From a virus, in the IMG/VR virus record IMGVR_UViG_3300022719_000152, positions 1 through 22,793 of that record: a stretch of DNA of 22,793 nucleotides; one strand, written 5' to 3'. The position numbers were made by a program, and so were the translations under genes. The notes under the pieces are model-generated. The model was given only the letters and a program-made list of their open reading frames with translations. It made no database searches and had not been told where the DNA came from. Below, one piece after another: positions 4,368-20,245 of the stretch. The number at the start of each line of letters is the position of its first letter. Position 1 is the first letter of the stretch.

Positions 4368-4736
4368 TCAGTTGTCGTAGGGTAGTGCCAGGTCTAGCAC
4401 CGCCTCCTTGTCAATCACTCCCAGGATGTCTGGGATCTTCAAGAAGAACAGGTCTCCGATGTACTGGTAGCTGACAATGTCGTTGTGCTTGAGGTGGCCG
4501 CGGAAGACGATGCGGTCTCCCTTCTTCACCGTGTGTTCAACCCAAACACTCTTACCCTTCGGGGTGACGTGCCAGTAGCCTTTGTCCACCGACACCACTA
4601 CTGCCACCGAGTGACCCATACGTTCCATCTGGTTGCCCTCAGGAATATACAGGCCACTCTCGGTCTTCTCCCTACGCCTCTCCGGTTTGACGAGAAGCCA
4701 GGGGCCTCTAGCCTTTACACGCTCAGGGTCGGTCAT
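4368..4736 (-). CDS. groES: GroES/Cpn10-like co-chaperonin
   Basis: WLLVKPE..EKTESGLYIP mobile-loop motif, AVVVSVDKG, VKKGDRIVF and DILGVI. Confidence 0.9.
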   Translation of the reverse strand: MTDPERVKARGPWLLVKPERRREKTESGLYIPEGNQMERMGHSVAVVVSVDKGYWHVTPKGKSVWVEHTVKKGDRIVFRGHLKHNDIVSYQYIGDLFFLKIPDILGVIDKEAVLDLALPYDN

Positions 4737-8949: not shown

Positions 8950-9879
8950 TCAAGCCAGAGCCTCGTAGACTCTGCGCTTGACCTCTTCTCCTAGGGGAAG
9001 GTTTCTTATGAGCTGACCTGTGGCTTTGATGCCCTGGGCCAGGACATTCCCTTCAAATCCTACCCACGAAGCTGAGTGATCTAACACACCTGCCTTCACA
9101 CCCATAGCCACTATATCAGTCCAAACATCAACACCTTCTCCTTTCGTAGAACGGAGCTCTACGAACCTGGCTGGCGGTCGGAAGGGGTTGGCCAAGATAT
9201 GCGCGACCATGGTGTACGTGTCAGAGGTGACCTGGTCACGCGACAGCTCTATCCGCGCATCAAAGAGTCGAGTGATCCTCCGTGCCGCAGACTCAATACC
9301 CATAGAGAACTTCTGTAGTGGGTGAACTGACTTCTTTGTTCGGGCCTGGTTGAGCACCACGATACTCGAGCGGCCGTGCAGATACTCCTTGGCCTCCTCC
9401 AGCAAGATCAACATGGTCTCTGCCCACACACCTGGGTCGTCAAAGTACGGCCGGATGAAGGTTAGGGAATCTATGCCGACAACTAGGTTGTTGTTCGTCC
9501 GTAGTTCATCCAGTGCAATACGAAGAGCAATATCACTGACACCAGCGATATACCCTAGCTCTTCTGGCACCACTCCGAGGCTCTCCAAGTAGAGCCGGTC
9601 GAAGGCCTCACTTTGGATCAGTAGGGTGTTGAACCCATCGCTTTGTGCCTGGGCAAAGATGTGTCCGAGTAATGCAGTCTTGCCTACGGATGGTTCTCCA
9701 TAGAGCTCAGTAACGCCTGATGGAAGTCCTCCACCAAGTGCAAAGTCTAGAGACGGGATACCCGTTCTAGTAGAGCAGCCGTGTTGTGCCATAGGTCGCT
9801 GCTCTAGATTTCGGAGCCCCAAGCCATTCATTGTTTCAGTGGCTCGGTCTACGAGGCTCTTCTTTGTCATCGCCATCAT
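8950..9879 (-). CDS. recA: Divergent RecA/UvsX-like recombinase
   Basis: TGIPSLDFALGGGLPSGVTELYGEPSVGKT (Walker A), VGIDSL (Walker B), VLNQAR, and a RecA-like C-terminal GVLDHSASWVGFEGNVLAQG. Confidence 0.88.
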   Translation of the reverse strand: MMAMTKKSLVDRATETMNGLGLRNLEQRPMAQHGCSTRTGIPSLDFALGGGLPSGVTELYGEPSVGKTALLGHIFAQAQSDGFNTLLIQSEAFDRLYLESLGVVPEELGYIAGVSDIALRIALDELRTNNNLVVGIDSLTFIRPYFDDPGVWAETMLILLEEAKEYLHGRSSIVVLNQARTKKSVHPLQKFSMGIESAARRITRLFDARIELSRDQVTSDTYTMVAHILANPFRPPARFVELRSTKGEGVDVWTDIVAMGVKAGVLDHSASWVGFEGNVLAQGIKATGQLIRNLPLGEEVKRRVYEALA

Positions 9880-9956
9880 TCAATCATTCTCCGGTTCTGA
9901 AGGTAAGTAGCTTTCGATCTGCAGTCTTTGTACCGCGAAATGTAGTCAAATTTTCA

Positions 9957-9974
9957 GAGATAAGGGGAGGGAAG
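9957..9974 (+). promoter_or_regulatory. Putative phage promoter motif copy 1 (GAGATAAG-N6-GAAG)
   Basis: Intergenic, upstream of 10022; overlaps the hairpin GAAGAC-GTGT-GTCTTC. Confidence 0.55.
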
Positions 9975-10021
9975 ACGTGTGTCTTCATCTAACCTTTACT
10001 CAAAAACCGGAGAATCAGCCA

Positions 10022-10552
10022 ATGAATGCACAACAAGTGCGAGTCCTACTAGCTAGCCATCCACATGAGGTCAACAAGGTGGCCAAGAGCTTGAAACTGA
10101 CTCCAACGGTGGCAGTCAATATACGCGAGCGATGGTTTTGTCAGTTGGGCGGCAGGTTTGACCGTGATCAGACCCTTAGTGTGCTGCAAGAACTGCAACC
10201 AACAGACGTGTTGCTGCGCCGAGAATGCTCTCAGTGCAAGAAGACAATCAACTTCAAGGTGGAACACATCCTCAAGTGCTTCCTCAAGAAGGGTGGTTTC
10301 TACCCGTCCAAGTTGTGTTGGACCTGTAAGAAGAAAAAGCAGATCTCCTCACAGTCCAAAGCACCACCGAAGGCTCCCGCATCAAAGAAGAAACCCCCCA
10401 AGAAGAAACCCATGAAGAAGAAACAGGCAAAGAAGTTGGCTCCGCCCGTCGGTGACAGCAACTCACACCTCACTTGGGTGGATAAGAAGAGCAACGAAGT
10501 GAAGAACAAGCCCTTCGCCAACCTGGCCCTCCAAAACCCGAAAAACTGTTGA
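10022..10552 (+). CDS. Zn-ribbon (zf-trcl-like) protein with Lys/Pro/Ala-rich tail
   Basis: Start ATG 10022 after AACCGGAGAA; CSQC...FLKKGGFYPSKLCWTC; tail KAPPKAPASKKKPPKKKPMKKKQAKK. Confidence 0.75.
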   Translation: MNAQQVRVLLASHPHEVNKVAKSLKLTPTVAVNIRERWFCQLGGRFDRDQTLSVLQELQPTDVLLRRECSQCKKTINFKVEHILKCFLKKGGFYPSKLCWTCKKKKQISSQSKAPPKAPASKKKPPKKKPMKKKQAKKLAPPVGDSNSHLTWVDKKSNEVKNKPFANLALQNPKNC

Positions 10553-10559
10553 TTTCGTT

Positions 10560-10577
10560 GGGATAAGAAAATTGAAG
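10560..10577 (+). promoter_or_regulatory. Putative phage promoter motif copy 2 (GGGATAAG-N6-GAAG)
   Basis: Intergenic; followed by hairpin 10580-10605, AAGAGGACGC-CCTAAA-GCATCCTCTT (one mismatch). Confidence 0.65.
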
Positions 10578-10653
10578 GAAAGAGGACGCCCTAAAGCATC
10601 CTCTTTCCCTTCTCCGTTAACGGAACACAACCAGTACAAGAAAGGAAGTCAAA

Positions 10654-11103
10654 ATGACTCAACAAGCATCCGTAACGAATCTGAAAAAGAACAAGACTAC
10701 AACTCGGCGCAAGTCTTCTACCAAGAAGGCGCCATCCAAAGCCAAGGGTAAGACCAAAGCAGAGGCTAGCAGCGTTGTGGTCACTCCCGAGAAGATGCGA
10801 GAGGCTACAGGCATCTTCTACACTGAGTCCGATGAGGGCATTCGGGAGTGGAAGGAGGAGAGTCCAGAGAACGCCGAGGCTGCCACAGCGTTGGCGAGAA
10901 TCCATCGGGAGATTGAACGTAGCGACGATCCCCGTGTGACTCAAGTGTTCAAGAGCATCTTGGAGTGGCCCTTCAAGAACAAGTATTCAGCTCCGGTTGC
11001 ATGGGGCCTCTTGGGCGCTATGGGCATCCAAGTTGCCTCTGACACGTACCAGTCCGGCAGGGGCTTGGTGTCAAAAGCAGCAAAGAAGATGAAGAAGAAG
11101 TAG
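10654..11103 (+). CDS. Hypothetical protein with Lys/Thr-rich basic N-terminal tail
   Basis: SD AAGGAAG; N-terminus KKNKTTTRRKSSTKKAPSKAKGKTK; followed by a terminator. Confidence 0.8.
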   Translation: MTQQASVTNLKKNKTTTRRKSSTKKAPSKAKGKTKAEASSVVVTPEKMREATGIFYTESDEGIREWKEESPENAEAATALARIHREIERSDDPRVTQVFKSILEWPFKNKYSAPVAWGLLGAMGIQVASDTYQSGRGLVSKAAKKMKKK

Positions 11104-11123
11104 GATCTGGCTGATCCAAAAGA

Positions 11124-11156
11124 GTCCCGGGGAAACCCGGGGCTTCTTTTTTAGCT
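11124..11156 (+). terminator. Intrinsic terminator
   Basis: GTCCCGGG-GAAA-CCCGGGGC followed by TTCTTTTTTAGCT. Confidence 0.85.
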
Positions 11157-11177
11157 GCAACATGGTGCAATGGCTTT

Positions 11178-11195
11178 GGGATAAGTAAGAGGAAT
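11178..11195 (+). promoter_or_regulatory. Putative phage promoter motif copy 3 (GGGATAAG-N6-GAAT)
   Basis: Non-coding, directly after the terminator. Confidence 0.55.
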
Positions 11196-11243
11196 AGAAA
11201 TATCAAGTGGAGAGTGCGTGACCACGCGCTAGAAAGATTAGCT
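11196..11243 (+). ncRNA. Candidate very small RNA
   Basis: Lies between a promoter motif and TTAGCT; hairpin AGTGCGT-GACC-ACGCGCT (11213-11230); no ORF. Confidence 0.3.
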
Positions 11244-11251
11244 GTGCTTTG

Positions 11252-11267
11252 GGTATAAGAACTGTAG
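11252..11267 (+). promoter_or_regulatory. Putative phage promoter motif copy 4 (GGTATAAG-N4-GTAG variant)
   Basis: Preceded by GCTTTGGG like copy 3; followed by the hairpin AGAC-GGAG-GTCT. Confidence 0.45.
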
Positions 11268-11508
11268 ACGGAGGTCTTTAGTTTCCCTCATCCCTTGAGG
11301 TGTGCTGCTGATCTTCTCACCGAATTCCTTCGGGCAATCCCATCTACCGTAGCCAGATAACGTCAACATCAACAGTGGTAGAAAGGGGGGACCCATGGAG
11401 TCAAGTGAATTTCCTTTTTTGAGTACTGGTTTTGGGCCGTCGCCTTGGGGCTGCTACTGCTTGGTAGCTCCAGGGCGGCGGTAATCCATCAAAGCGCTTT
11501 TCTTACCC
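11266..11508 (+). ncRNA. Candidate structured small RNA (about 240 nt)
   Basis: ORF-poor unit containing a 21-bp contiguous stem with six G-U pairs (11436-11482) and ending at TTTTCTTACCC. Confidence 0.4.
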
Positions 11509-11540
11509 TAGATTCGTTGTAAAAATATAGGTACAGATGC

Positions 11541-11559
11541 GGCATAAGACAGGTAGTAG
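11541..11559 (+). promoter_or_regulatory. Putative phage promoter motif copy 5 (GGCATAAG-N7-GTAG)
   Basis: About 30 nt upstream of the histone-fold gene. Confidence 0.45.
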
Positions 11560-11589
11560 AACTCCCCATTTAGCACTGGAGGCTAGATA

Positions 11590-11907
11590 GTGGCTCGAAG
11601 CAAAGCCAGAGTGAATGAACGGGGAGAACCCCTTCTCCTCAACAATGCTCAGATCAAACTCTACTGTCACAACGACGTCCTGGAAGGCAATCCTGACGAT
11701 CCTGAAGATATGGAGATTGTGAAGATGCGTCCGACAGAGCCGTTCTACGACGAGCTCCAAAAGCAAGTCTACGATATGCTGATGGATGCCATTGCGGCAG
11801 CTCGCCGTGATGGAAGAACTACTCTGATGCGCGAAGACGTCCCTGGGTATGACCCAGAAGAGGACGAGGACGAAGATGAGGAAGAAGGGGACGAAGTCTA
11901 CAACTAA
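11590..11907 (+). CDS. Bacterial-type histone-fold protein with acidic insert and acidic tail
   Basis: GTG start after GGAGG; helix 1 LLLNNAQIKLYC; KMRPTEPFYDELQKQVYDMLMDAIAAARRDGRTTLMREDV carries the histone RxTxxxxD motif and the Bd0055/DUF1931-like pattern. Confidence 0.8.
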   Translation: MARSKARVNERGEPLLLNNAQIKLYCHNDVLEGNPDDPEDMEIVKMRPTEPFYDELQKQVYDMLMDAIAAARRDGRTTLMREDVPGYDPEEDEDEDEEEGDEVYN

Positions 11908-11926
11908 ACCAAAACCGGAGAATCAA

Positions 11927-12115
11927 ATGCACATTTGCCCAAACTGTGTGATGGCCGTCCTGATGGCGTTGCCCTTTGTAGGAACGGTAGCACATGCCGT
12001 CTACCACTGGGTGAGAAAGGACAGGTCTTGCACCAATGAAACACATCCACATCTGGATTCCTGTGGGGACGCTTTGCGTGGAGCTGAGCCGCAACGAGGT
12101 CCAGAAAGCCCTTAG
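11927..12115 (+). CDS. Small membrane protein with N-terminal HxCxxC
   Basis: ATG after AACCGGAGAA; MHICPNCVMAVLMALPFVGTVAHAVYHWV hydrophobic segment. Confidence 0.65.
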   Translation: MHICPNCVMAVLMALPFVGTVAHAVYHWVRKDRSCTNETHPHLDSCGDALRGAEPQRGPESP

Positions 12116-12401
12116 AGACGACGGCCTTCATCGGGCCGAATATTGCCGCGGGTGCTCGACTTTCCGAGTACACATGAGCGGAGGAAGAGTAGCGCTGCTT
12201 CAAGGCGACGCTACCAGACAGTTTCTTGAAGGCGTTGACGAAGAAGAAAACGTCACCATCCACCGAGCTCCTCCAGAGTTCGACATCAAGAGAAAAGTAA
12301 GACAGCCCCCACTGGAATCCCGCTTAGGGAGAGGGCTGAAAGACCTCATGGAGTCTCAACCTCCAATGAGGGTTACCCCCTTTGACAAGGAAGACCGATG
12401 A
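12036..12401 (+). CDS. Hypothetical protein
   Basis: Track ORF with AAAGGA upstream; ATGA coupling downstream. Confidence 0.6.
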   Translation: MKHIHIWIPVGTLCVELSRNEVQKALRDDGLHRAEYCRGCSTFRVHMSGGRVALLQGDATRQFLEGVDEEENVTIHRAPPEFDIKRKVRQPPLESRLGRGLKDLMESQPPMRVTPFDKEDR

Positions 12402-12562
12402 TCACAGAGGAAAAGCTACGAGAGCTTTTGAACGAGCTAGAGCATTTACGAAGACAGCGCGATGAGCTACAGCGCTGCAACAACGAATATTTAGAAAGGG
12501 CGCGCAAGGCCGAGGAGTTGGTAAATCAGTGTGAAACCGGAGCTGTAGATGGATCCGAATGA
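12398..12562 (+). CDS. Small coiled-coil protein (54 aa)
   Basis: Below the track cutoff: MITEEKLRELLNELEHLRRQRDELQRCNNEYLERARKAEELVNQCETGAVDGSE; SD AAGGAAG; ATGA overlap. Confidence 0.7.
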   Translation: MITEEKLRELLNELEHLRRQRDELQRCNNEYLERARKAEELVNQCETGAVDGSE

Positions 12563-12767
12563 TTACTGCGCACAACATAGGCATCAACATCCCTGCAGCT
12601 ACTGCATCGAGAACCTCATTGAGGATGTCGAAGAGGCTCACAACCTACTAGACACCGCCAATATCCCAAGGCGCCGCCGAGGGAAGATAGATCTCACTTT
12701 GGGCGGTAGGTTGCGAATGTTATTCGAGAGGGATGCGCGTTCACTTTCTGAGATGCGAACTTCTTAG
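12549..12767 (+). CDS. Hypothetical protein with Cys/His cluster
   Basis: SD GGAG; CAQHRHQHPCSYC. Confidence 0.65.
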   Translation: MDPNDYCAQHRHQHPCSYCIENLIEDVEEAHNLLDTANIPRRRRGKIDLTLGGRLRMLFERDARSLSEMRTS

Positions 12768-12776
12768 GAGAACTCA

Positions 12777-12905
12777 ATGACACAACTAGAAACTACTGGG
12801 ACCTGCTCTAACCGGGTCCTGATGGCAGGGTGTTCCTTCACCACCAAGGCAATCGGCTGGATCGTTCCTTTGGTCGCTTTCGTGGTGGTGGTGGCGGTAT
12901 GTTGA
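12777..12905 (+). CDS. Small membrane peptide (42 aa)
   Basis: SD TAGGAG; C-terminal hydrophobic IGWIVPLVAFVVVVAVC. Confidence 0.55.
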   Translation: MTQLETTGTCSNRVLMAGCSFTTKAIGWIVPLVAFVVVVAVC

Positions 12906-13531
12906 GGGCCATCTTTGACCAATTTACTTGCCCACCTCTCCATCACCTGACTGCGGCTGCTGACAGGATTAATGGCACCGTTGCCTACGATGGATTGTGT
13001 TGGACGGTGGAGATTCCCATTGAAACCAATGAGGCGCTCGAAGAGATTCTGTTGGAGGCGAATATTCGAGCAAATCTTCGGGATAAGAAAGTTGAAGCAA
13101 CTCAACCAGCTATTACCGAGGAAATTCACCATGGAAACAGAATTGCAGCAAAACAAGCCAGTCGCCCTCATCATGGACGACAACGAGTTCATGCGTCGAG
13201 CATTGAAGCGGATGCTCAGGGCGGACTTCGAGGTCTTGCTCGCGCCGAACCCAGAGGAAGCTCTGTCTTCCTTGGAGAAGGCGGAAGTGGTCTTATCAGC
13301 GTGGCGACCGAACTTGGACTCTTTCCAGAAGTTTTTAGACACTGTGAATGGGAAACCGATGCTGGTGATGACCACCTTCCCGGAGCGAGTTCCGGCAAAG
13401 TGGCCCACCGTACAAAAGCCCTTCCTGTGTCAGGAGCTTCTAGAGCCTCTTCACCTGGCGGTGAGGAACAAAGAGCTTCAGTTCACGCAGACGATGAAGT
13501 GCCCGAATTGCGACGAAGAGTCGCTACATAA
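12899..13531 (+). CDS. Possible hypothetical protein; only the first ~70 aa look genuine and the tail overlaps the receiver gene
   Basis: ATG 12899 overlaps the upstream stop (ATGTTGA); MLRAIFDQFTCPPL...WTVEIPIETNEALEEILLEANI. Confidence 0.35.
   Translation: MLRAIFDQFTCPPLHHLTAAADRINGTVAYDGLCWTVEIPIETNEALEEILLEANIRANLRDKKVEATQPAITEEIHHGNRIAAKQASRPHHGRQRVHASSIEADAQGGLRGLARAEPRGSSVFLGEGGSGLISVATELGLFPEVFRHCEWETDAGDDHLPGASSGKVAHRTKALPVSGASRASSPGGEEQRASVHADDEVPELRRRVAT
13080..13097 (+). promoter_or_regulatory. Putative phage promoter motif copy 6 (GGGATAAG-N6-GAAG)
   Basis: About 33 nt upstream of ATG 13131. Confidence 0.6.
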
Positions 13532-13586
13532 AGTCAGGAATGACTTTTGGGTGTGTTCGTCCTGCGAGTACACTGACCAGCGATAG
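13131..13586 (+). CDS. Aspartate-less response-regulator receiver domain fused to a C-terminal Zn ribbon
   Basis: Start ATG 13131 after GAGGA; ALIMDDN, VVLSAW (acceptor Asp position is Ala), LVMTT, QKPF; then CPNC...CSSC. Confidence 0.8.
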   Translation: METELQQNKPVALIMDDNEFMRRALKRMLRADFEVLLAPNPEEALSSLEKAEVVLSAWRPNLDSFQKFLDTVNGKPMLVMTTFPERVPAKWPTVQKPFLCQELLEPLHLAVRNKELQFTQTMKCPNCDEESLHKVRNDFWVCSSCEYTDQR

Positions 13587-13591
13587 CTTAG

Positions 13592-13628
13592 AAGGCCCCC
13601 GCTAACCACGGGGGCCTTTTCTTTTACC
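13592..13628 (+). terminator. Intrinsic terminator
   Basis: AAGGCCCCCG-CTAACCA-CGGGGGCCTT followed by TTCTTTTACC. Confidence 0.85.
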
Positions 13629-13646
13629 AAAACACCGGAGAACCCA

Positions 13647-14102
13647 ATGACTACCTACTACTCAGAGTTTTGTACGGCTCTGCCGATAGACAATGACGCG
13701 CAGAAGGAGTGGCTGATCGCACATCACAACTTCTTCGACACCGAAAGAACCGAGGAAGAATGCGAAGCCTTCTGCAAGCGATTCGATATCGACGACGAAT
13801 GCGAATGGGGCGATGGCGTATTCGGACTCAGGTTTGAGAACGGGATGGCTATCATGGCCGGCGACGAGAGCTGCCGGGCATACGAGTCAGCAGCAACCCT
13901 AATCCACGAATTCCTCAAATGGTTTCGACCAGAAGGATGCCATGGATACGAATTCTGCCACTCGGCTTCTCGTGCCCACACAGACGCCTTTGGTGGTGGG
14001 GCCGTCTTCATCACCGCCAAAGAGATCAAATGGCTCTTCACCAACCAGTGGTTGGAGGAGCAACATGAGGCATTCGCCAAGATAGGCTCTGAGGAGCAAT
14101 AG
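13647..14102 (+). CDS. Hypothetical protein (FGGGAVFITA motif)
   Basis: ATG after ACCGGAGAA; the motif is recalled from other phage/plasmid hypothetical proteins (not verified). Confidence 0.8.
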   Translation: MTTYYSEFCTALPIDNDAQKEWLIAHHNFFDTERTEEECEAFCKRFDIDDECEWGDGVFGLRFENGMAIMAGDESCRAYESAATLIHEFLKWFRPEGCHGYEFCHSASRAHTDAFGGGAVFITAKEIKWLFTNQWLEEQHEAFAKIGSEEQ

Positions 14103-14116
14103 GGACTGAGTATTTT

Positions 14117-14135
14117 GGGATAAGTAGTGTGGTAG
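14117..14135 (+). promoter_or_regulatory. Putative phage promoter motif copy 7 (GGGATAAG-N7-GTAG)
   Basis: Intergenic; overlaps the hairpin GTAGA-GGAGT-TCTAC. Confidence 0.6.
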
Positions 14136-14238
14136 AGGAGTTCTACTCCTTTCCCACGCTTGTCCCCTCAGGGCCCTGTTGATTGACGTAATCTGGCTGG
14201 ACTTTGAGGGGACATAACTATTTCCTCTTGTTTTAGCT
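14132..14238 (+). ncRNA. Candidate small RNA (about 105 nt)
   Basis: Lies between a promoter motif and TTTTAGCT; perfect 10-bp stem TGTCCCCTCA/TGAGGGGACA (14161-14214); no ORF. Confidence 0.4.
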
Positions 14239-14315
14239 AGGCTACTTCAATACACATGACATGCATATTTCGAGGCCAGAGGCCTCACTAACTTCCAAAG
14301 GGAGACCTGAAGAAA

Positions 14316-14604: not shown

Positions 14605-14916
14605 TCAGTAGTGACTGACGATATAGTTGAGAAGATCCTCCCAGTAGATATAGAGCAGGACCCCTTCCATAAAAATGACGAACAGGGCCGAGTAGAAGAA
14701 GGCCGGCAGCCAAGACCCAAGCCAGCAGTCGTAGAACTCCCAGATAGGGTCGATGACCAGGTCATCAAACTTGTCGAAGGTACCAATCCTCCACAACCAG
14801 GTGGCGAGCCACCAGCCTGCCAACACGGCGGTTATTCTCCAGTCTTCTTCAAAGAAGAGCGCGGCCATAACAGCCACAGTGAAGTCGTGTACCTTCGCTA
14901 GTGATAGAAGTTTCAT
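14605..14916 (-). CDS. Multi-pass membrane protein
   Basis: Several hydrophobic Trp-rich segments; ATGA-coupled to the matrixin gene. Confidence 0.7.
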   Translation of the reverse strand: MKLLSLAKVHDFTVAVMAALFFEEDWRITAVLAGWWLATWLWRIGTFDKFDDLVIDPIWEFYDCWLGSWLPAFFYSALFVIFMEGVLLYIYWEDLLNYIVSHY

Positions 14917-15500
14917 GCGTAGAGCTCGTGCAGTGACTGGACATCCTTGTCAGTCACTACGTAGGACTGATCGTGCTCAAGCCTCGCCACCATGATGGAA
15001 TTCTTGACCTCATCGTGTGCCAAACCCAAAACGTGGCCGAGTTCATGTTGTAGAGCGTCCGCTAGATAGCTCATGTGTACCCCGTCCCACCCTGGCAGCA
15101 GCCACACAGTCGCTGACTGAACAACGTCGTCTTTGTCGTAGAGGAGCTGCACCCAGGCGTAGGCAGAGCAGTCATCTTCTTCCCTCTCCGAGTTTGACTC
15201 CTGGATAAAGACGAATTTGTTGCTGTCTGGGTCGATAAGATCTCCTACCCCGGAGAACAGCTTCAACCCCACAGAGTCGTTCCAGAAGTCCACAGCGGCC
15301 TGGGCAACCTCTTTGACCAATGCCCGCTTTTCTAGCCCCTCCCCTAGAATGATGGTGATGGGCACCCAATCAGGCATGAACTTGAGGCCCGGAAGGGTAG
15401 AGTGATCCCCCTTCTTATCCTTGTCGCGAATCACCATCACAGTGATCAAAGTCAGGATGGCAAGAAAGAAAACGCAGAAGAGACTGATTTTCCAAGTCAT
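14913..15500 (-). CDS. Membrane-anchored matrixin (M10/metzincin) metalloprotease
   Basis: Start ATG 15500 (MTWKISLFCVFFLAILTLITVMVI anchor); HELGHVLGLAH (HExxHxxGxxH) and Met-turn SIM. Confidence 0.88.
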   Translation of the reverse strand: MTWKISLFCVFFLAILTLITVMVIRDKDKKGDHSTLPGLKFMPDWVPITIILGEGLEKRALVKEVAQAAVDFWNDSVGLKLFSGVGDLIDPDSNKFVFIQESNSEREEDDCSAYAWVQLLYDKDDVVQSATVWLLPGWDGVHMSYLADALQHELGHVLGLAHDEVKNSIMVARLEHDQSYVVTDKDVQSLHELYA

Positions 15501-15682
15501 CAGTTGTCCGTCCTTGCCCCGTACAGGAGCTGCAGCACCCACAAATCGTGAGGGTTCAGTTTGTCGGGCATGAGGAAGAATCGGCACCACTCCGATTTGG
15601 ACCAGTTCTGGTCCATATACCGAAGCACCTGTCGGCGCTCCTCAACCTTCTGAGCAATCGAGGCCCGCATTCCTACCGGCAT
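15500..15682 (-). CDS. Small hypothetical protein
   Basis: Stop overlaps the matrixin start (TGATG); start uncertain, no clear SD. Confidence 0.4.
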   Translation of the reverse strand: MPVGMRASIAQKVEERRQVLRYMDQNWSKSEWCRFFLMPDKLNPHDLWVLQLLYGARTDN

Positions 15683-20157: not shown

Positions 20158-20245
20158 TGGTGGGTGGAGAAGGAGTCGAACCTACGGAGATCTCAAGATC
20201 ATCGGTTTTACAGACCGCACCGGCCCCCTACCGGAATATCCACCC
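20158..20245 (-). tRNA. tRNA-Tyr (GTA)
   Basis: Acceptor stem GGGTGGA/TCCACCC, discriminator A, encoded CCA, anticodon loop CTGTAAA, long variable arm GATC-TTGA-GATC, T loop TTCGACT. Confidence 0.9.

Follow-up and report, generated by a model that had tools for sequence, protein, structure and literature searches.

A gene at positions 11590–11907 of the window, by which we mean the whole 22,793-nucleotide stretch analysed here (bases 1–22793 of the linear 138,638-bp IMG/VR virus record IMGVR_UViG_3300022719_000152), encodes a 105-residue acidic protein that is predicted to fold as an α3-truncated histone of the HBb/HTkC type with an acidic β-hairpin in loop L1, and to pair with itself in a histone-type handshake. 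Sequence comparison places the protein in a small conserved family of about 25 members, so that it is not an orphan, and the same phage carries a second, basic histone gene. The family keeps the histone dimer (as predicted) but swaps much of the DNA-contact set for acidic or neutral residues, beside a conventional basic histone. We tentatively favour the reading that the dimer, instead of packaging DNA, is a decoy or chaperone whose acidic surface would bind basic DNA-binding proteins. Phage α3 histones are already known; of note here are the conserved, charge-inverted hairpin design and its presence with a conventional histone in one phage.

This is a real phage gene. The GTG codon at 11590 is the first possible start because an in-frame TAG lies at 11584–11586, just 5′ of it. 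An earlier note, made from the sequence alone, had described the product as a phage-encoded bacterial-type histone with an acidic loop insert and an acidic tail. The phage origin holds, as the gene lies on an IMG/VR virus contig with terminase, tail-sheath, endolysin and replication genes. The three strings quoted in the note are present in the translation (AIAAARRDGRTTLMREDV at residues 67–84, DVLEGNPDDPEDMEIV at 29–44 and DPEEDEDEDEEEGDE at 88–102), and the C-terminal end of Bd0055 that it gave is that of the HBb chain printed by HMMER (...AKADGRKTVMARDI).

Predicted fold and dimer

Taken singly, the sequence matches histone models weakly. Pfam DUF1931 (PF09123) gives E = 0.037 and 14.7 bits against a gathering cut-off of 21.8, and it matches four of 20 family members at E ≤ 1 (best E = 0.02). 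A single-sequence search against the PDB returned HTkC at E = 0.12 and HBb at about 1, both weak and sub-threshold. CBFD_NFYB_HMF (PF00808) had no match at E ≤ 10 across the whole record, missing both of the phage histone-fold proteins. A profile of 20 family members run against the PDB sequences reached HTkC (9f2c; E = 3.5e-6), HBb (8fvx/8cmp; 0.0024) and HLp (9qt0; 0.031), followed by lower matches to NF-YC, HmvA, HPhA, HMfB and viral H4–H3 doublets, plus a few designed helical proteins. PDB entry 9F2C is described as the face-to-face (FtF) histone HTkC (PMC11390915). The family was also aligned with hhalign to a profile of 23 HBb-type histones from one phylum (Bdellovibrionota), taken from genomes reached via a scan with the RNase HII of the phage. 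The two profiles align with a probability of 94.7% and E = 6.3e-8 over 57 columns, from α1 to α3; the bacterial profile has a single gap, of 13 residues, at loop L1. At the level of sequence profiles, the likeness to histones is beyond chance.

AlphaFold2 with a 20-row alignment gave a model with a pLDDT of 90.8 and a pTM of 0.69, in which the predicted elements are a helix at residues 19–28, strands at 31–33 and 41–43, a helix at 50–73 and a helical turn at 81–83; the C-terminal region shows a four-residue helix (89–92) only. A single-sequence model (pLDDT 52, with helix 50–73 alone) was set aside. VIA-align was used to compare the model with 48,161 chains and found four at Z ≥ 5, a range in which, according to the warning of the tool (Z < 8), a match can reflect a common arrangement. 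The top three are HTkC (9f2c_A; Z = 6.8, 1.4 Å, 58/58 residues), HBb (8cmp_A; Z = 6.8, 1.1 Å, 58/58) and HLp (9qt0_A; Z = 6.3, 1.7 Å, 56/56); the fourth is a TAF pair, TAF pairs being the next best matches after the α3 histones (Z = 5.4 and 4.8). We trust these matches despite Z < 8 because whole targets are covered and because they agree with the independent sequence evidence. Foldseek gave nothing at E ≤ 0.001; its best rows are again HTkC, HBb and HLp (E = 0.023–0.1, TM score by target 0.74–0.82), and all 50 rows shown are histone or histone-fold entries by title.

According to Schwab et al. 2024 (PMC11390915), the α3-truncated superfamily has an α3 cut to 3–4 residues and an α2 shorter than in nucleosomal histones. 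Homology to this superfamily is detectable, and in the predicted fold DSSP assigns a three-residue turn at 81–83 and 24 residues to α2 (50–73). The RxTxxxxD motif is present as R76-T77-T78-L-M-R-E-D83. The earlier note had put forward a prokaryotic-type histone fold, to be checked against Bd0055, HMf and DUF1931. Profile matches, the AlphaFold2 model and the structural superposition concur in an HBb-like, α3-truncated fold: the best structural matches are α3 histones, HMfB is found among the lower profile matches and DUF1931 stays below threshold.

Two copies of the chain, modelled with the family alignment, form a predicted handshake dimer with an ipSAE of 0.66 (three runs, 0.65–0.67), compared with 0.00 for the best of three controls, so that the homo-oligomer prediction proposed in the note gave a pass. 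In calibration, 20 of 30 proteins solved as one-chain pairs scored as high, as did one of 23 solved as single chains, counts that hold only roughly here because our own alignment was supplied. At least 97% of the contacts are common to the runs, and the partner pLDDT is at least 76. Residues 46–49 meet 77–80′ (L1 to L2′), residue 60 meets its counterpart, 56 meets 63/64, and residues 52, 55 and 56 of α2′ meet 81, 83 and 84 of α3. The predicted interface also takes in the family-specific residues 5–7, 14–18, 28–32 and 44.

Family, charge and DNA-contact residues

Relatives were sought with phmmer (HMMER) over all 1.84 billion cluster representatives of the full library, with no length limit. 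The search gave 22 proteins at E ≤ 1e-3 (three at ≤1e-10 and one at ≤1e-30), one of which is the product of the window itself. P0019 (561 residues) and P0020 (1,160 residues) are tandem-repeat proteins with seven weak stretches each and were excluded from all alignments. The 19 genuine relatives are 86–143 residues long, are 29–47% identical to the acidic protein and align over its residues 3–97; all come from metagenome assemblies and none has a name. P0021, P0025, P0013 and P0014 lie on long contigs, of 61.5, 41.1, 34.5 and 23.5 kb respectively. No fused form of the family was found in this search. The alignment to which the counts out of 25 below refer (A3) includes cluster mates and two further profile hits, and three of its 25 rows are near-duplicates of others. 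Four residues, P14, A71, R76 and D83, do not vary; R7, H27 and K45 each occur in 22 of the 25 rows, and position 57 is N in 24 rows and Q in the window copy. The family consensus reads R-x-D-E-x-G-x-P-I-x-V-I-x-x-Q-I-K-x-x-C-H ... E-D-G ... K-M-R-P-T-x-x-F-L-x-x-L-N ... A-R-x-x-G-R-T-x-L-x-x-x-D-V-P.

Other collections yielded little. PHROGs, NCBIfam and a tblastn search of 50,697 phage records gave no match for the acidic protein. BFVD gave none at E ≤ 0.001, its top row being an unnamed protein with E = 0.22, and the ESM Atlas gave only sub-threshold leads (0.86–0.88). A word-based search with the single sequence returned only the acidic protein itself, and with the family profile seven proteins. 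A metagenome scan for the family found a single 1.3-kb contig. Scans of viral contigs gave no usable locus: two stretches were confirmed for P0021, but without a locus, and one locus was rejected as a relative, the match being off-frame within an ATPase gene.

The acidic protein has a net charge of −18 and an isoelectric point (pI) of 4.15. The charge is unevenly spread (+3 over residues 1–12, 0 over 13–27, −7 over 28–44, −1 over 45–85 and −13 over 86–105), and without the tail the fold region is still at −5. Net negative charge is found in 24 of the 25 family members (range +1 to −18), the window protein being the most acidic. The L1 insertion, which HBb-type histones lack, amounts to 13 extra residues in the window copy and 11 in most relatives and carries a net negative charge in every member (−1 to −7). 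The window hairpin is thus two residues longer than most and is without the consensus T-E-D-G-D tip, the glycine of which (G39) is found in 21 of 25. The long acidic tail (net −5 or lower) is found in eight of the 25; in the window copy aromatic residues lie near its end (DEVYN), and this copy has DYDP in common with P0002 and P0023. The acidic insert between helices 1 and 2 noted earlier is therefore present but is not peculiar to the window copy, and the acidic tail, also present, is of limited occurrence elsewhere. As the hairpin is found in 25 of 25 members and the long tail in eight, we regard the insert as the defining feature of the family and the long tail as a lineage-specific addition.

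Several conserved positions lie outside the hairpin. In the N-terminal segment, residues 5–7 and 14–18 are in the predicted interface, with R7 in 22 and P14 in 25 of 25. The C26-H27 pair at the end of α1 is conserved (C26 in 20, H27 in 22). At the end of L1, K45 is found in 22, R47 in 17 and T or S at position 49 in 25, T49 aligning with HBb S24. In L2 and α3, R76 and D83 are invariant, T77 is found in 19 and T78 in 10; the RD clamp is kept as R76–D83, with D74.

The HBb residues with the most DNA contacts are described as T8, S9, K10, K12 and K16 in α1, N22, T23 and S24 in L1, K52 and T53 in L2, and R57 (PMC11317129). In the hhalign mapping (Table 1), two of the three α1 lysines and the L2 lysine of the bacterial histones are replaced in the acidic protein. 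Bacterial dimer histones have RKT in L2 together with three α1 lysines (K11, K13 and K17 of the published logo), on a basic, minimal fold of ~60–70 residues without an insertion; here L2 reads RTT, α1 has Q21, K23 and H27, and the fold is acidic and interrupted in L1. The dimer–dimer residues of the FtF logo, R48 and N52, correspond to A70 and D74; across the family, N or S predominates in column 70, and column 74 has D in seven members, N in seven and E in six. The expectation in the note that the protein is not a simple DNA packager fits these data, namely Q21/K23/H27, T77, E82 and the negative charge of 24 of the 25 members.

Table 1 Features of the acidic gene and its protein, residue correspondences, surroundings and the basic histone gene. 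Positions are those of the window unless a record position is given.
Feature	Position	Strand	Details
Coding sequence, 105-residue acidic histone-fold protein	11590..11907	+	GTG start; TAA stop 11905-11907
Shine-Dalgarno GGAGG	11578-11582	+	7 nt 5′ of GTG start; read from sequence
Residues 1-18, short basic N-terminal segment	11590..11643	+	net +3 (1-12); motif [LIV]-R7-x-D/N-E-x-G-x-P14
Residues 19-28, helix α1 (NAQIKLYCHN)	11644..11673	+	model helix
Residues 29-44, acidic β-hairpin in L1 (DVLEGNPDDPEDMEIV, net −7)	11674..11721	+	strands 31-33, 41-43; pLDDT 94-96
Residues 45-49, KMRPT, conserved end of L1	11722..11736	+	pairs with L2 of the partner in predicted dimer
Residues 50-73, long central helix α2	11737..11808	+	crosses partner at V60 in predicted dimer
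Residues 74-85, loop L2 and one-turn α3 (DGRTTLMREDVP)	11809..11844	+	RxTxxxxD = R76-T78-D83
Residues 86-105, acidic C-terminal tail (GYDPEEDEDEDEEEGDEVYN, net −13)	11845..11904	+	pLDDT 72-77, lower confidence
Bacterial K14 (invariant or near-invariant) to Q21			Q in 17/25
Bacterial K16 (invariant or near-invariant) to K23			K in 14, Q in 10 of 25
Bacterial K20 (invariant or near-invariant) to H27			H in 22/25
HBb K52 / bacterial K55 to T77			T in 19/25
HBb T53 to T78			T in 10/25
HBb R57 to E82			E or D in 15/25
HBb S24 to T49			T or S in 25/25
HBb N22 to R47			R in 17/25
Basic neighbour, 191 residues, net +28, pI 10.1	9977..10552	+	ORF list, charge count
Basic neighbour, 149 residues, net +13, pI 10.0, lysine-rich ends	10654..11103	+	ORF list, charge count
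Gene-free leader, 486 nt	11104..11589	+	second longest intergenic stretch of the 138.6-kb record
Terminator-like GC-rich hairpin	11122..11145	+	10 pairs, 7 G-C, then CTTTTTT; ends gene 10654-11103
Stem-loop in leader	11429..11495	+	21-pair stem and 7 outer pairs; −44.3 kcal/mol, z −5.6
Basic histone, 66 residues, pI 9.6, net +3	record G000:C1:56086-56286 (L051:1498-1698)	-	bacterial histone profile, E 3.5e-15

The closest well-characterized comparison is HBb (Bd0055) of Bdellovibrio bacteriovorus, a 'bacterial dimer' α3 histone (PDB entries 8CMP, 8FVX, 9EZZ and 9F0E). The acidic protein shares with it the three-helix fold and one-turn α3, with the model superposing on 58/58 residues at 1.1 Å, and the D-G-R motif and RD clamp (D74-G75-R76...D83 and D49-G50-R51...D58, respectively). 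Like HBb it is predicted to form a handshake dimer and is without tetramer residues. Unlike HBb, which is basic, it is at net −18, has the acidic hairpin of 11–13 residues of its family in L1 and has extra conserved segments at the N- and C-termini. The HBb contacts K10, K16, K52 and R57 are Q, H, T and E, and the Pfam models that cover such histones either score the protein below their cut-off or do not match it. HTkC of Thermococcus kodakarensis (9F2C) is the best sequence-profile match, and the structural fit to HTkC and to HLp of Leptospira perolatii (9QT0) is as good as that to HBb. The difference from FtF histones lies in the dimer–dimer residues, which are A70 and D74 in the acidic protein; the basic histone of the phage has R52 and N56.

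Histones encoded by tailed phages have been published as the α3 'phage histones' of Schwab et al. 2024 (PMC11390915) and as the VTTH, VHHH, VFFH and BBVH groups of Liu et al. (bioRxiv 10.1101/2024.12.06.627149, also hLife 2025), in which BBVH are Bd0055-like predicted dimers. The acidic protein is like these in being an α3-type histone fold encoded by a tailed phage and differs in that the published groups are described there as lysine-bearing DNA benders or bridgers. The 'phage histones'/VTTH are described as being without RxTxxxD and as having a long C-terminal tetramerization helix; the acidic protein is the reverse, with the motif present and an acidic tail instead. The BBVH set was defined by the HBb profile of Liu et al. 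at E < 1e-5 together with clustering with Bd0055-like predicted dimers, and that profile probably missed the acidic protein because its similarity to public models is weak. In the passages compared here, none of the published groups has an L1 hairpin ascribed to it; in those of Liu et al. the word 'hairpin' does not occur, and 'acidic' is used only for giant-virus triplets. The acidic hairpin family may nevertheless figure in the supplementary lists of Liu et al. or of Schwab et al. Full-text literature searches on phage and bacterial histones, DNA mimics and acidic histone folds gave no description of such a family.

In archaea, pairs of acidic and basic histones in one genome are reported to be widespread, 'acidic miniature' histones that are Bd0055-like but acidic are described, and basic–acidic heterodimers have been predicted (PMC13260811). 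The phage resembles these genomes in having one acidic and one basic histone-fold gene. The archaeal acidic histones differ in being ~55–70 residues long and, in many cases, halophilic adaptations, with no L1 insertion mentioned in the account of them (PMC13260811). The proteome of this phage has a moderate pI (median 6.5 over 201 open reading frame (ORF) calls). Acidic DNA mimics of the Ocr, ArdA and Arn type are small, dimeric and strongly acidic, and are encoded among small genes of unknown function. The acidic protein is likewise small and strongly acidic, sits among such genes and is a predicted dimer; its fold is unrelated to theirs, most of its relatives are far less acidic, and for the protein itself the resemblance is one of bulk charge (−18) only.

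The basic histone, cellular histones and possible roles

The second histone of the phage lies between genes for a J-domain protein and a DNA helicase. Its PDB matches include HLp (9qt0; E = 8.1e-9) and HTkC (0.0017). The FtF logo has R48, N52, R54, T56 and D61, with R at −6 and N at −2 from the L2 arginine, as described in PMC11390915; R52, N56, R58, T60 and D65 of the basic phage histone are at exactly this spacing, by which it is a histone of the face-to-face type. A word-based search with it returned only that protein itself. Pairwise BLAST between the acidic protein and the basic histone found no similarity; the acidic family profile recognizes α2–α3 of the basic histone (E = 1.3e-4, and 5.4e-6 with hhalign).

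The RNase HII of the phage has six confirmed relatives among species genomes, at 37–41% identity: a 'Deltaproteobacteria' metagenome-assembled genome (MAG), a Pseudobdellovibrionaceae MAG, Bdellovibrio sp. ZAP7, a 'Proteobacteria' MAG and two Bacteroidota. Three of the six are in Bdellovibrionota-type records. We did not name a host from these matches, the identity being too weak and the Bdellovibrionota lead correspondingly so. We searched 121 sampled genomes of the phylum to which the Bdellovibrio genome belongs (Bdellovibrionota). An HBb-type histone is found in 95 of them, and 57 have a match to the basic phage histone, with identities of 45% at most. With the acidic family profile, eight genomes gave matches at E ≤ 1e-4, all confined to profile positions 45–91. 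Neither the 121 genomes nor five hand-picked ones yielded a full-length member of the hairpin family; two matches in the latter were ignored, one inside or opposite an unrelated 301-residue ORF (L020) and one of 25 residues (L018).

Two of the matching places in the Bdellovibrionota genomes were inspected (L060:1165–1629 and L062:1120–1623, both plus strand). Both are longer proteins in which an HBb-like histone domain follows an N-terminal Cys/His-rich domain, and they fit the published ZZ histones, a label assigned by the description in PMC11390915. They are the best family-profile matches in the 121 genomes (E = 1e-6 to 8e-5), and their stretch ...AIQNAREDGRKTVMDRDIP is near the family consensus SIxNARxxGRTxLMxEDVP. 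Unlike the acidic family, they are without the L1 hairpin and have the RKT lysine and the N-terminal Cys/His-rich domain. Within the sampled genomes, no cellular sequence comes closer to the acidic family than the histone domain of these two proteins. Many HBb-type histones of Bdellovibrionota (L037–L044 and others) have long Lys/Ala-rich N-terminal tails (AKKKATKKAAPKK...), which are absent from HBb.

Our preferred reading, which is tentative, is that of a histone-fold dimer that does not package DNA and acts as an acidic decoy or chaperone. The acidic protein is likely to be no DNA packager because most of the canonical DNA-contact lysines are replaced and because it is strongly acidic. It is also unlikely to coat or bend DNA as HBb does, since the contact set is largely replaced and the acidic hairpin sits beside the L1–L2 site. 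We infer that the dimer would instead use its acidic surface to bind basic DNA-binding proteins, an idea that also draws on analogy with the archaeal acidic/basic histone pairs (PMC13260811). Candidate targets would be the basic face-to-face-type histone of the phage, the two lysine-rich upstream neighbours or a host nucleoid protein; the partner need not be a host protein, because the phage itself encodes the basic histone and the two neighbours.

A number of points weigh against this reading. K45, R47, T/S49, R76 and T77 are conserved in the loop region and could still hold phosphates, and the models of acidic archaeal histones are described as retaining a basic DNA-binding ridge (PMC13260811). 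A charge density like that of a DNA mimic is no family trait, since the net negative charge of many relatives is slight (−1 to −6) and 17 of 25 have no long tail. The HBb and HTkC dimers have been solved, so the pass of the predicted dimer shows likeness and may be the memory of the model, and its calibration is approximate for the reason given above. Within the family, the occurrence of an acidic member together with a basic histone is known from this one phage only.

It is somewhat unlikely, though still the best placed of the alternatives, that the protein remains a DNA- or RNA-binding histone in which the hairpin and tail are built-in regulators, either auto-inhibitors or handles for recruiting partners. 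The acidic C-terminal tails of SSB, T7 gp2.5 and HMGB1 act as such regulators, and the aromatic residues near the end of the tail (DEVYN; DYDP) would suit such a role. The invariant R76–D83 clamp, the conservation around the L1–L2 site (K45 22/25, R47 17/25, T/S49 25/25 and T77 19/25) and the basic N-terminal segment (+3) also favour continued binding, as do the acidic archaeal models with their basic ridge (PMC13260811). Set against them are the loss of two of the three α1 lysines and of the L2 lysine, E82 in place of HBb R57, a fold region that is still at −5 without the tail, and an acidic hairpin beside the canonical DNA site in all 25 members. The tail, moreover, cannot be the core mechanism of the family because it is missing in 17 of 25.

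A second alternative, which we consider unlikely and which corresponds to the dominant-negative partner of the note, is a poison subunit that would heterodimerize by handshake with a host HBb-type histone or with the basic histone of the phage, giving dimers unable to bind or oligomerize on DNA. The α2 core can be aligned with those of bacterial histones (E = 6.3e-8) and of the basic phage histone (E = 5.4e-6), HBb-type histones are common (95/121 genomes) in the phylum that holds three of the six closest RNase HII matches, and archaeal basic–acidic heterodimers have been predicted (PMC13260811). The homodimer, however, is itself predicted confidently, and its interface takes in residues 5–7, 14–18, 28–32 and 44, which are missing from minimal histones. 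The host lead is also weak (RNase HII at 37–41%), and the basic phage histone is at most 45% identical to the histones of that phylum.

The protein might have no part in chromatin and serve as a scaffold, either as an adaptor for the multisubunit RNA polymerase of the phage, by analogy with histone-fold factors of the TAF/NF-Y type, or as a metal module formed by C26-H27 and the TEDGD tip; we consider this improbable. The phage does have a 2,464-residue fused β–β′ RNA polymerase, TAF pairs are the next best structural matches after the α3 histones (Z = 5.4 and 4.8), and C26 (20/25), H27 (22/25) and G39 (21/25) are conserved. Yet nothing ties the acidic gene to the polymerase, the two being separated by more than 85 kb of the record, the window hairpin is without the consensus TEDGD at its tip, and matches at the level of TAFs are to be expected of any histone fold. 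That the ORF is a chance one or a decaying copy is hardly credible and is already contradicted by conservation: the protein has no PHROG, NCBIfam or above-threshold Pfam match and a word-based search found no homologue but itself, but it has a strong ribosome-binding site at its start and a confident AlphaFold2 model, and some 20 relatives (29–47% identity) retain its length, its motifs and the invariant P14, A71, R76 and D83.

The decoy or chaperone reading can be extended to a two-part chromatin system built on one fold, an idea that we regard as doubtful. The basic face-to-face histone would coat DNA and an acidic 'anti-histone', with the same fold and its charge turned inside out by the L1 hairpin and the tail, would control it, acting to chaperone, time or strip the basic phage histone or host histones during infection. 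Histones in bacteria and phages have been recognized only within the last few years, and to our knowledge the phage groups known to date have all been interpreted as DNA benders or bridgers. Bacterial viruses would, if the idea is true, have their first described histone/anti-histone pair. Should the acidic form regulate or antagonize basic histones, it would offer a simple, testable model of histone chromatin control without eukaryotic chaperones and could itself be turned, as a tool, against bacterial histones, HBb among them; a protein with no more than weak DNA binding would be just another divergent phage histone.

Surroundings of the gene and the rest of the phage

The two lysine-rich genes upstream (Table 1) have no family match, and their context makes their products possible basic partners of the acidic protein. 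The +28 neighbour has two CxxC pairs and a Lys/Pro-rich stretch, which we take to be reminiscent of linker-histone tails. The terminator-like hairpin sits between the +13 gene and the acidic gene, within the leader, a stretch where no ORF has a convincing start and nothing matched Rfam. The stem-loop of the leader lies ~95–160 nt upstream of the acidic gene, and none of 200 shuffled sequences was as stable. A scan for DNA inverted repeats did not report it and no Rfam family matched it; the stem, in our reading, holds G–U pairs and would therefore form only in plus-strand RNA, which suggests an element acting at the RNA level on that strand. A σ70 promoter scan of 9800–14300 gave no site, and a search for enriched 9-mers over the intergenic regions recovered only the ribosome-binding context ACCGGAGA. 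Downstream of the acidic gene are small Cys-rich ORFs without family matches.

The record is that of a large, uncultured tailed phage, with a CheckV completeness estimate of 70%; its gene content was taken from the 201 ORF calls and family scans. The window includes an M15/VanY endolysin with a peptidoglycan-binding domain. Elsewhere are a 1,205-residue protein with a tail-sheath-like C-terminus and a large terminase (1,384 residues; L005:10155–14309, minus strand) split by an intein that carries a LAGLIDADG domain. The family-A DNA polymerase (1,067 residues; L007:10224–13427, plus strand) was matched in three stretches and has an inserted segment; its middle has PHROG matches typical of an inserted element. 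The other replication and repair genes outside the window include DnaB, helicases, a second RecA/UvsX-like protein, UDG, RNase HII and ParB-N. The fused RNA polymerase (G000:C1:99453–106847, minus strand; L006:5453–12847) has Rpb2 and Rpb1 domains in one protein; along 80% of its length it shares ~30% identity with proteins of Vibrio phages D69, D181 and D148.

Three further genes in the window, all on the minus strand, encode a GroES-like co-chaperonin (4368–4736; Cpn10, E = 3.5e-7), a short RecA-like ATPase (8950–9879), additional to the longer UvsX/RecA-like gene of the record, and a protein with a matrixin-type metalloprotease C-terminus (14913–15590). An Rfam scan of the window at gathering thresholds reported no family, not even tRNA. 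ARAGORN finds four tRNA genes in the record, one of them an 88-nt tRNA-Tyr(GTA) in the window (20158–20245, minus strand) and the other three elsewhere.

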